Source: Escherichia coli (GTDB taxonomy: Bacteria; Pseudomonadota; Gammaproteobacteria; Enterobacterales; Enterobacteriaceae). From it: 1,109 nucleotides of DNA. Shown in pieces: positions 1 to 53 of this stretch (positions are counted from its first letter, which is position 1; every line of letters begins with the position of its first letter). The notes below the pieces were generated by a model. The model was not told the origin of the DNA, did no database searches, and saw nothing but the letters and a program-made list of their open reading frames with translations. The stretch is taken from assembly GCF_003334385.1 (NCBI RefSeq), contig NZ_QOWN01000126.1; one strand, written 5' to 3'. The position numbers and the translations under genes are program-made.

Positions 1-7
1 TCCGATG

Positions 8-36
8 TTGAACTGTTTTATTTGTATACAGATAAT
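8..36 (+). promoter_or_regulatory. Candidate sigma70-type promoter: -35 TTGAAC (8..13), 17-nt spacer, -10 GATAAT (31..36)
   Basis: Hexamers match the TTGACA / TATAAT consensus at 5/6 and 5/6 with optimal 17-nt spacing. The predicted transcription start (about 43) would leave a leader of only about 10 nt overlapping the putative SD, and AT-rich DNA produces such matches by chance. Confidence 0.3.
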
Positions 37-41
37 TTTAT

Positions 42-45
42 AGGG
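42..45 (+). promoter_or_regulatory. Putative Shine-Dalgarno element (AGGG) 8 nt upstream of ATG 54
   Basis: Purine-rich AGGG at 42..45 with an 8-nt spacer to the start codon. It is a weak partial match to AGGAGG. Confidence 0.4.
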
Positions 46-53
46 TATACCAC

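Follow-up and report, generated by a model that had tools for sequence, protein, structure and literature searches.

In IS10 and IS50, transposase transcripts that read through from outside the element are subject to fold-back inhibition, and in long 5' leaders of the rpoS type a distal segment sequesters the Shine-Dalgarno (SD) sequence, which is opened by small RNAs and Hfq. The lambda cI mRNA that is transcribed from PRM is leaderless. The DNA analysed here, a stretch of 1109 nt of Escherichia coli (the window in the following), contains the beginning of an eib-type gene and the 53 nt in front of it, and resembles each of these systems in part. Similarly to IS10/IS50, the DNA contains, 5' of a promoter-like site, a segment with complementarity to the SD and AUG, and an RNA started upstream is predicted to be untranslatable while one started internally would be open. 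Unlike in these elements, eib is a prophage adhesin gene and not a transposase gene, its putative internal promoter is without a -35 element in three of the four lineages described below, and an extra covarying hairpin as well as an invariant palindrome hairpin are present. Like the rpoS-type leaders, the eib leader is predicted to have a long-range helix across the translation-initiation region (TIR) and a stable off state, and the expression of its gene is linked to stationary phase; however, it comprises only about 110 nt, is specific to eib, is without a match in Rfam and has only a putative opener. As in leader-peptide or coupling systems such as secM-secA and ermC, an upstream ORF ends on the SD in lineages A, C and D, with variants in which stop and start overlap as ATGA, but lineage B is without this ORF, purifying selection is not seen and an arrest motif is not recognisable. 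Finally, eib is, like lambda cI, a gene of a lambdoid prophage that is expressed in lysogens, and a start at about position 43 would leave a leader of 9-12 nt; in contrast to cI, the SD is retained and conserved, and the upstream sequence behaves as structured RNA.

Gene identity and upstream lineages

Judged by its sequence, the gene in the window is an eib-family (EibD/YadA-like) adhesin gene of a lambdoid prophage, with immunoglobulin binding as a putative function. All 352 residues of its product are identical to the corresponding ones of P0001, a protein of 459 aa with a YadA anchor (PF03895), the closest solved structure is that of EibD, an immunoglobulin-binding protein of E. coli (PDB 2xqh, 4.5e-34), and the YadA anchor structure 2lme matches at 7e-18. 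A YadA-type C-terminal anchor, an EibD-like coiled-coil stalk, a signal peptide and a prophage site 3' of tail-fibre genes were all found, the gene order in the relatives being J-lom-tail fibre-tfa-eib in a lambdoid prophage, with an intergenic region of 375-680 bp 5' of eib. After near-copies of 97-100%, the next-closest proteins are 34-53% identical in the passenger region and bear generic names, YadA-like or hypothetical, none of them Eib. The start codon of eib is the ATG at 54, which opens a typical signal peptide and is kept at this position in all relatives. Each genome carries a median of 2-3 eib copies, with a maximum of 6. Upstream DNA was supplied by the twin contig L010, a human-gut metagenome scaffold that encodes P0001, is 100% identical to the window (window position = L010 position - 459) and ends 512 nt upstream of the ATG. 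Positions 1-77 of the window match phage PhiR5_1 without a difference, and positions 1-111 share about 90% identity with the eibA locus of prophage P-EibA.

Several further observations concern the setting of the gene. The locus is a mosaic. Its leader and signal-peptide part (1-111) shares 90-100% identity with eibA and PhiR5_1, for the passenger region (about 112-933) neither the 5426 E. coli genomes nor the phage collection contain a close DNA match, and positions 934-1109 are again like eibC and eibD (about 81%); leader and signal peptide behave like a common 5' cassette on divergent passengers. The stalk-coding part contains two tandem repeats of 78 nt (26 codons) at 675-830, which are 74% identical and encode KYTxxKxxEIYxDVxGxLxATExKAN, and an additional short repeat ending in (V/I)D is found at about 886-930 and 1036-1080. 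3' of eib (L010 1981-7892) there are small ORFs of 157 and 57 aa similar to orf-156 and orf-60 of the P-Eib prophages, further 3' a dinI homologue on the opposite strand and then the chromosomal genes prfC, osmY and a patatin-family gene, so that in the gut-metagenome E. coli of L010 the prophage end adjoins prfC. In the eibA intergenic region, the - strand harbours two GC-rich hairpins with T-runs (L002 3244-3261 and 3373-3390), which are oriented for leftward termination just 3' of the tail-fibre assembly gene; this strand carries no annotation. A terminator-like hairpin, TCTGCAACTGTAGCAGG followed by AGTTTTGTTT (window 84-100, with a T-run to 110), was flagged within the signal-peptide coding sequence of both the window and eibA (L002 3946-3966), and may have arisen by chance, with two sites against 0.6 expected.

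Roughly 50 distinct eib upstream regions were collected from E. coli genomes, phage records, IMG/VR and gut metagenomes. They form four lineages, A (the window and eibA), B (eibC, eibD and several STEC genes), C and D, which are unrelated beyond about -160 and have conserved blocks in common inside that limit. The strongest of these, a block of 28 nt at window positions 21-48 with the sequence TTTGTATACA(G/A)AT(A/C)ATTT.A.AGG(G/A)TAT, is invariant in all four lineages except at the marked positions. It includes the 12-bp core TTTGTATACA(G/A)A of a near-palindrome (Table 1), which is invariant in all eib upstream regions, and a -10-like hexamer that reads GATAAT, AATCAT or AATAAT and varies at positions 1 (G/A) and 4 (A/C) alone. 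The block is confined to regions upstream of YadA-type (eib-type) genes. Among 5426 complete E. coli genomes, 57 carry it, at 150 places in total, and since all of these precede YadA-type genes, a wider regulon was rejected. A scan of metagenomes with the 28-mer yielded 66 gut-metagenome loci and no new lineage, and a scan of genome contigs with an 18-mer yielded 120 chance matches in unrelated AT-rich genomes, none of which has the extended motif. By eye, several regulatory elements were considered and rejected: a LexA box, in which CTGT and ACAG are separated by 11 nt and not by 8 and which is unconserved across the lineages, a Fur box (11/19, likewise unconserved), and sigma-54, sigma-28 and extended -10 elements, none of them conserved across the lineages.

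Table 1. Features of the window and of the DNA upstream of it; positions are those of the window unless stated otherwise
Feature	Position	Strand	Remarks
P2 3' strand	1-18	+	1-2, 4-9 and 13-18 pair with L010 429-447; 10-12 internal loop
25-codon upstream ORF	1-43 (full: L010 425-502)	+	stop codon TAG (41-43) lies on the SD, 10 nt 5' of the eib AUG
-35-like hexamer TTGAAC	8-13	+	4/6 consensus; lineage A only
18-bp near-palindrome TTATTTGTA/TACAGATAA (hairpin P3)	18-35	+	stem 19-24/29-34, loop UAUA 25-28
-10-like hexamer GATAAT	31-36	+	5/6 consensus; overlaps P3 3' arm and linker
A/U-rich conserved linker between P3 and SD	35-42	+	predicted unpaired in A and B; pairs with AUGAAA near -88 in C and D
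Shine-Dalgarno AGGG (lineage B: AGGA)	42-45	+	8 nt 5' of the ATG
Second palindrome GGTATACC (B: GGATATCC; D: GGTATATC)	44-51	+	in B-D, 3' strand of the predicted SD-sequestering helix
P1 3' strand, lineage A	53-68	+	CAUGAGC 53-59 with GCUCAUG L010 421-427; AAGAAAUUU 60-68 with GAAUUUCUU L010 403-411
Partial CDS, eib-family trimeric autotransporter	54-1109	+	352 of 459 codons; runs off the window end
Signal peptide	~54-134	+	part of the eib-family CDS
RcsB-like motif TAAG...A.TCC.A	L010 368-381 (-145 to -132)		aligned: L070 832-845, L005 890-903, L008 898-911

Structure of the predicted leader

Folds of the RNA were computed for each lineage from -150, -138 or -110 to +21. Despite their differing sequences, the MFE folds of all four lineages have a common architecture: P1, an outer long-range helix in which a segment near -100 pairs with the SD, AUG and first codons, P2, a long hairpin inside P1, and P3, the small hairpin formed by the palindrome at 18-35. 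In lineage A, P1 is predicted to cover the start codon and codons 2-5, and the pairing of AAGAAAUUU with GAAUUUCUU is a perfect inverted repeat which was also listed by a repeat scan. In lineages B-D the 3' strand of P1 consists of the SD and its flanks, GGAAUA(U/C)CCU pairing with AGG(A/G)UAU.CC, and the switch from U-A to C-G between B and C/D is compensatory. P2 is a hairpin at the same place but of different sequence in types B, C and D. The two promoter-like hexamers of the window lie within these elements: TTGAAC extends from the end of one P2 sub-helix across the internal loop to the base that opens the following sub-helix, and GATAAT corresponds to the P3 3' arm plus two linker bases, T36 being unpaired in the RNA model. 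No earlier description of an eib leader was found, and a comparison of the leaders of L010, L070, L005 and L008 with Rfam 15 gave no match at E <= 1.

A perfect 11-bp inverted repeat, GAAATTCCGAA...TTCGGAATTTC (L010 372-382/399-409), is also present upstream and is annotated as a stem_loop in the eibA record (L002 3777-3814). Of its two arms, the 5' one falls within the RcsB-like box discussed below and the 3' one shares bases with the 5' strand of P1; in a transcript, the repeat would compete with the outer part of P1. Repeats similar to TTCGGAAT recur in the other lineages.

Compared with shuffled sequences, the fold of -110 to +21 has z-scores of -3.15 (A), -4.39 (B), -6.00 (C) and -5.32 (D), and this segment is the z minimum in sliding windows at three loci. 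Six sequences were tested on both strands, and in each of them the + strand has the lower MFE, the difference being up to 16 kcal/mol; this would be expected if G.U pairs matter. Counting against a leader, the z-score of the - strand equals or betters that of the + strand in lineage C and eibC; the window's own lineage A has the weakest z-score and pairs a part of the TIR different from that paired in B-D.

When RNAalifold was applied to a plain MAFFT alignment of all lineages, P3 alone was recovered, since P2 is misaligned by sequence. The five pairs of P3 are all retained, with exchanges between U.G and U-A, and the helix is 100% paired in an alignment fitted to a covariance model. This model, built from lineages C and D, recognises every lineage on the + strand, with E-values of 1e-8 or lower. 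Pair counts on the model-fitted alignment gave 87.4% paired cells, compared to 78.7 +/- 0.8 in shuffles (reached in 0/500) and 34-46% in slid controls, and 64 cells changed on both sides against 23.9 +/- 3.9 expected; in P2, 10 of 16 pairs are compensatory or changed on both sides. Covariation amounts to 0.303 vs 0.161 (0/500 shuffles), the alignment being fitted to the model and representing four lineages. Counted as pairs, just 12 are changed on both sides, a number that is reached by 36 of 500 shuffles, and between C and D seven one-sided changes retain pairing by wobble while two break it. Since the alignment is fitted to the model and the real lineages are effectively four, we regard the covariation as supportive rather than decisive. 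In these models, the segment from -110 to +21 behaves as a selected RNA structure.

Complementarity to the ribosome-binding site was addressed by a targeted duplex test, in which the upstream segment -118 to -71 was paired with the TIR (-18 to +16) and compared with shuffles. The anti-TIR duplexes reach -16 to -19 kcal/mol, vs -7 to -9 +/- 2.3 in shuffled sequences, with p 0.001-0.005 in every lineage (lineage A: -17.0 kcal/mol vs -7.8 +/- 2.2, p 0.003). In B-D, none of the 180-440 other segments of the same locus pairs as well, and in A, 2.75% of the other segments of its locus do so. With a leader from -100 or further upstream, the predicted probability of the SD being unpaired is 0.00 in B-D, and with the long leader that of the AUG is 0.00-0.01 in lineage A. 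With a leader of 11 nt, the AUG is predicted to be unpaired with probabilities of 0.94-0.98 in A, eibC and eibD, 0.41-0.50 in L004, 0.37-0.41 in C and 0.05-0.18 in D. An RNA thermometer was rejected in silico: between 25 and 42 C the sequestered element is not predicted to open, its probability of being unpaired remaining at 0.00-0.06; the folded leader is predicted to be a stable off state and not a thermometer. Selected complementarity implies an RNA that spans both strands and is started upstream of the window. Thus, we infer that one RNA spans -110 to +20 and that its 5' end is located upstream.

Candidate promoters and competing explanations

From the letters of the window, the earlier note had described TTGAAC-N17-GATAAT as a good sigma70 match, together with an AGGG, and these elements lie exactly at the positions given, with the ATG following at 54 (Table 1); counting 7 nt past the -10 hexamer also gives a predicted start at about 43, inside the AGGG. 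In a consensus scan the match comprises 9/12 hexamer positions at a spacer of 17 nt, without a TG extension, and in this respect the description holds. It does not extend to frequency and conservation: the match is unremarkable by count, as the 1109-nt window has 7 sigma-70-type sites vs 4.0 +/- 2.4 in shuffles and a higher-scoring 10/12 site occurs at 492-521 within the coding region, and the -35-like hexamer is confined to lineage A. Metagenome copies have the -35-like variants TTGAGC and TTGAGT. Nothing similar to a -35 element is found at a spacing of 16-18 bp in lineages B, C and D, and the proximal match amounts to 9/12 in A, 7-8/12 in B, 5/12 in C and 7/12 in D. The hexamer pair is the sole + strand match in the 512 nt upstream on L010 and also in the eibA intergenic region, and the proximal hexamer keeps A at position 2 (-11) and T at position 6 (-7) in all lineages.

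The upstream DNA was inspected for other promoters and regulator sites, as had been suggested in the earlier note, and conserved distal elements were indeed seen. All 51 distinct upstream regions have a TAnnnT at -125 to -117 and one box-like motif at -146 to -138. The TAnnnT follows 5-8 nt past the box, as TATATT at -124 or as TAAAAT, TAATTT or TATTTT at -119/-117, and would place transcription initiation between about -112 and -105, right where P1 begins on its 5' side. Together with the best -35 it matches at 8/12 positions in A, C and D and at 7-8/12 in B; it is a weak promoter candidate with a poor -35, equal across the lineages. The box-like motif, TN(G/A)G(A/G)N4TC(C/T)NA, is similar to the box described for the RcsB homodimer, TN(G/A)GAN4TC(T/C)NA, published sites of which lie up to -215 (PMC7913699), and the invariant columns of the eib motif are the specified box positions. 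The strict pattern is matched in B, C and D, with TAAGAATATTCCTA in lineage D, whereas the sequence of the window's lineage, TAAGGAAATTCCGA, has G at position 5 and is off the strict pattern; it resembles a listed site of the Salmonella rcsA promoter, TAAGGTTTATCCGA (PMC7913699). Since 0.18-1.2 such boxes are expected by chance at a single locus, the argument is carried by positional conservation. The placement is a misfit for class II activation, the centre of the box being at about -27 to -31 relative to the distal start and at about -126 relative to the proximal one. A search of the literature for a link between Rcs and Eib found none. As a lead, the putative box suggests that eib genes may be part of the Rcs envelope-stress regulon.

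Published data bound the position of the eib promoter only loosely. The eibG gene with 168 bp of upstream sequence is functional on plasmid pGEM, static culture raises eibG mRNA about threefold and the protein strongly, and Eib accumulates in stationary phase. A search of the literature, short of Sandt & Hill 2000/2002, gave no mapped transcription start or promoter for any eib gene.

We hold with moderate confidence that eib is preceded by a structured leader which is transcribed from upstream of the window, and that TTGAAC-17-GATAAT is incidental or secondary. The first 53 nt of the window would make up the 3' half of the conserved leader of the prophage eib gene, the length of which we put at about 105-140 nt, or roughly 110 nt, and transcripts would start upstream of the window. 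Judging by the TAnnnT and the RcsB-box-like motif, the eib mRNA would most likely start about 105-112 nt before the ATG. The segment at about -118 to -85 is then predicted to pair with the AUG and codons 2-5 in lineage A, and with the SD through the AUG region in B-D, and translation would be held off until the leader is opened. Candidate openers are ribosomes on the upstream ORF that ends at the SD, or a trans-acting factor. The TTGAAC half of the promoter-like pair would be a P2 strand of lineage A and the GATAAT half a part of P3 and the linker, serving as a secondary promoter at most. The earlier note had left two possibilities side by side, a promoter upstream of the window with a fortuitous match inside it, or a very short leader; the complementarity of the segment at about -118 to -85 in every lineage favours the former. 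Counting against the leader model, a fully sequestered TIR needs an opening mechanism, and the invariance of the unpaired linker bases, and of precisely A(-11) and T(-7) in the proximal hexamer, would likewise be expected of a real -10.

The second possibility survives only as an arrangement similar to IS10/IS50, in which the promoter is located between the anti-TIR segment and the TIR. The proximal hexamers would then be the real eib promoter, dependent on an activator in most lineages and giving rise to a leader of 9-12 nt that starts at the SD, and the anti-TIR strand would silence only RNA that reads in from the phage late/tail-fibre operon or other promoters; a version in which the proximal and upstream promoters are both active is included here. 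We regard this as less likely than the leader model, of which it is the main rival. The position of the -10-like hexamer between the two complementary strands with its invariant A and T, the TTGAAC at 17-bp spacing as part of the only + strand consensus match in the intergenic region of lineage A, and the predicted opening of the AUG by an 11-nt leader in A, eibC and eibD, if less so in L004, C and D, are all in line with it. A leader of this length had been called implausibly short, which overstates the case given the leaderless cI mRNA. No terminator-like site was seen on the + strand between the tail-fibre assembly gene and eib, and RNA reading through into eib is therefore to be expected. 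The RcsB-like box, about 126 nt upstream of the proximal start, could serve as a remote activator site, and eib genes in lysogens need the IbrAB activator (Sandt 2002, as cited in a later paper). On the other hand, lineages B, C and D are without both a -35 and a TG extension (7-8, 5 and 7 of 12 matches, respectively), the SD would be at the very 5' end of the mRNA, and the covariation of P3 and P2 would have no role in the gene's own mRNA. Moreover, keeping the read-through RNA of an adhesin gene untranslated in lytic growth would offer little obvious selective advantage.

It is far less probable that the conserved elements act as DNA operators only, the block and the palindromes TGTATACA and GGTATACC binding a dimeric regulator at an ordinary promoter and the folds being a side effect of inverted repeats in AT-rich DNA. 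Such a role would fit the near-perfect 18-bp palindrome that overlaps the -10, the change from GGTATACC to GGATATCC, which retains dyad symmetry, the - strand z-scores that match or exceed those of the + strand in C and eibC, and the restriction of the block to eib-type upstream regions (150 places in 57/5426 E. coli genomes). However, four lineages of differing sequence all show significant long-range complementarity to the TIR, the pairing of P2 survives many changes, including G.U pairs that would be mismatched on the other strand or in DNA, and the + strand has the lower MFE in 6/6 sequences tested. Least probable of all is a separate small RNA, starting at about -107 and ending after P2, that would repress short-leader eib mRNAs in trans through the TIR: the complementarity fits pairing in cis and in trans alike, a U-rich tract, UUUUAUUUGU, follows P2, and genomes carry several eib copies (median 2-3, up to 6), but the terminator scan calls nothing after P2, P1 closes a compact domain in the cis MFE fold of every lineage, and two unproven promoters would be required.

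Upstream ORF and control of Eib production

If the structured leader is transcribed from upstream as we propose, the upstream ORF is one candidate for its opening. It begins at -88 in the 5' strand of P1, passes through P2 and P3, and is preceded in lineage A by an AGGAG that is exposed in the predicted fold. The ORF is intact in all variants of A, C and D, with the same start and stop, whereas lineage B has only ORFs of 3-12 codons; in two indel variants a TGA stop overlaps the eib start codon as ATGA. Within lineage A, about 6-7 amino-acid changes compare with 3 synonymous ones, which gives no sign of purifying selection. A functional leader peptide was rejected, being missing from B and without visible purifying selection. 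Translation of the upstream ORF is possible as a lineage-specific opener coupled to eib, rather than as a general mechanism.

It might also be speculated that the eib leader is a new cis-regulatory RNA, the hairpin and linker of which (18-42) are recognised by IbrAB or an Rcs-controlled factor that unlocks translation. We consider this improbable; if it were true and the leader were recognised by IbrAB, this activator would act post-transcriptionally and not at the promoter.

As a promoter call, TTGAAC-17-GATAAT is ordinary. The Eib proteins mediate immunoglobulin binding, serum resistance and chain-like adherence in Shiga-toxin-producing and commensal E. coli. Outside static or stationary culture their expression is poor unless IbrAB is present. 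A conserved leader that hides the ribosome-binding site would move part of the control of eib to translation, and the behaviour of a construct may depend strongly on whether it includes the approximately 110 nt that precede the ATG.
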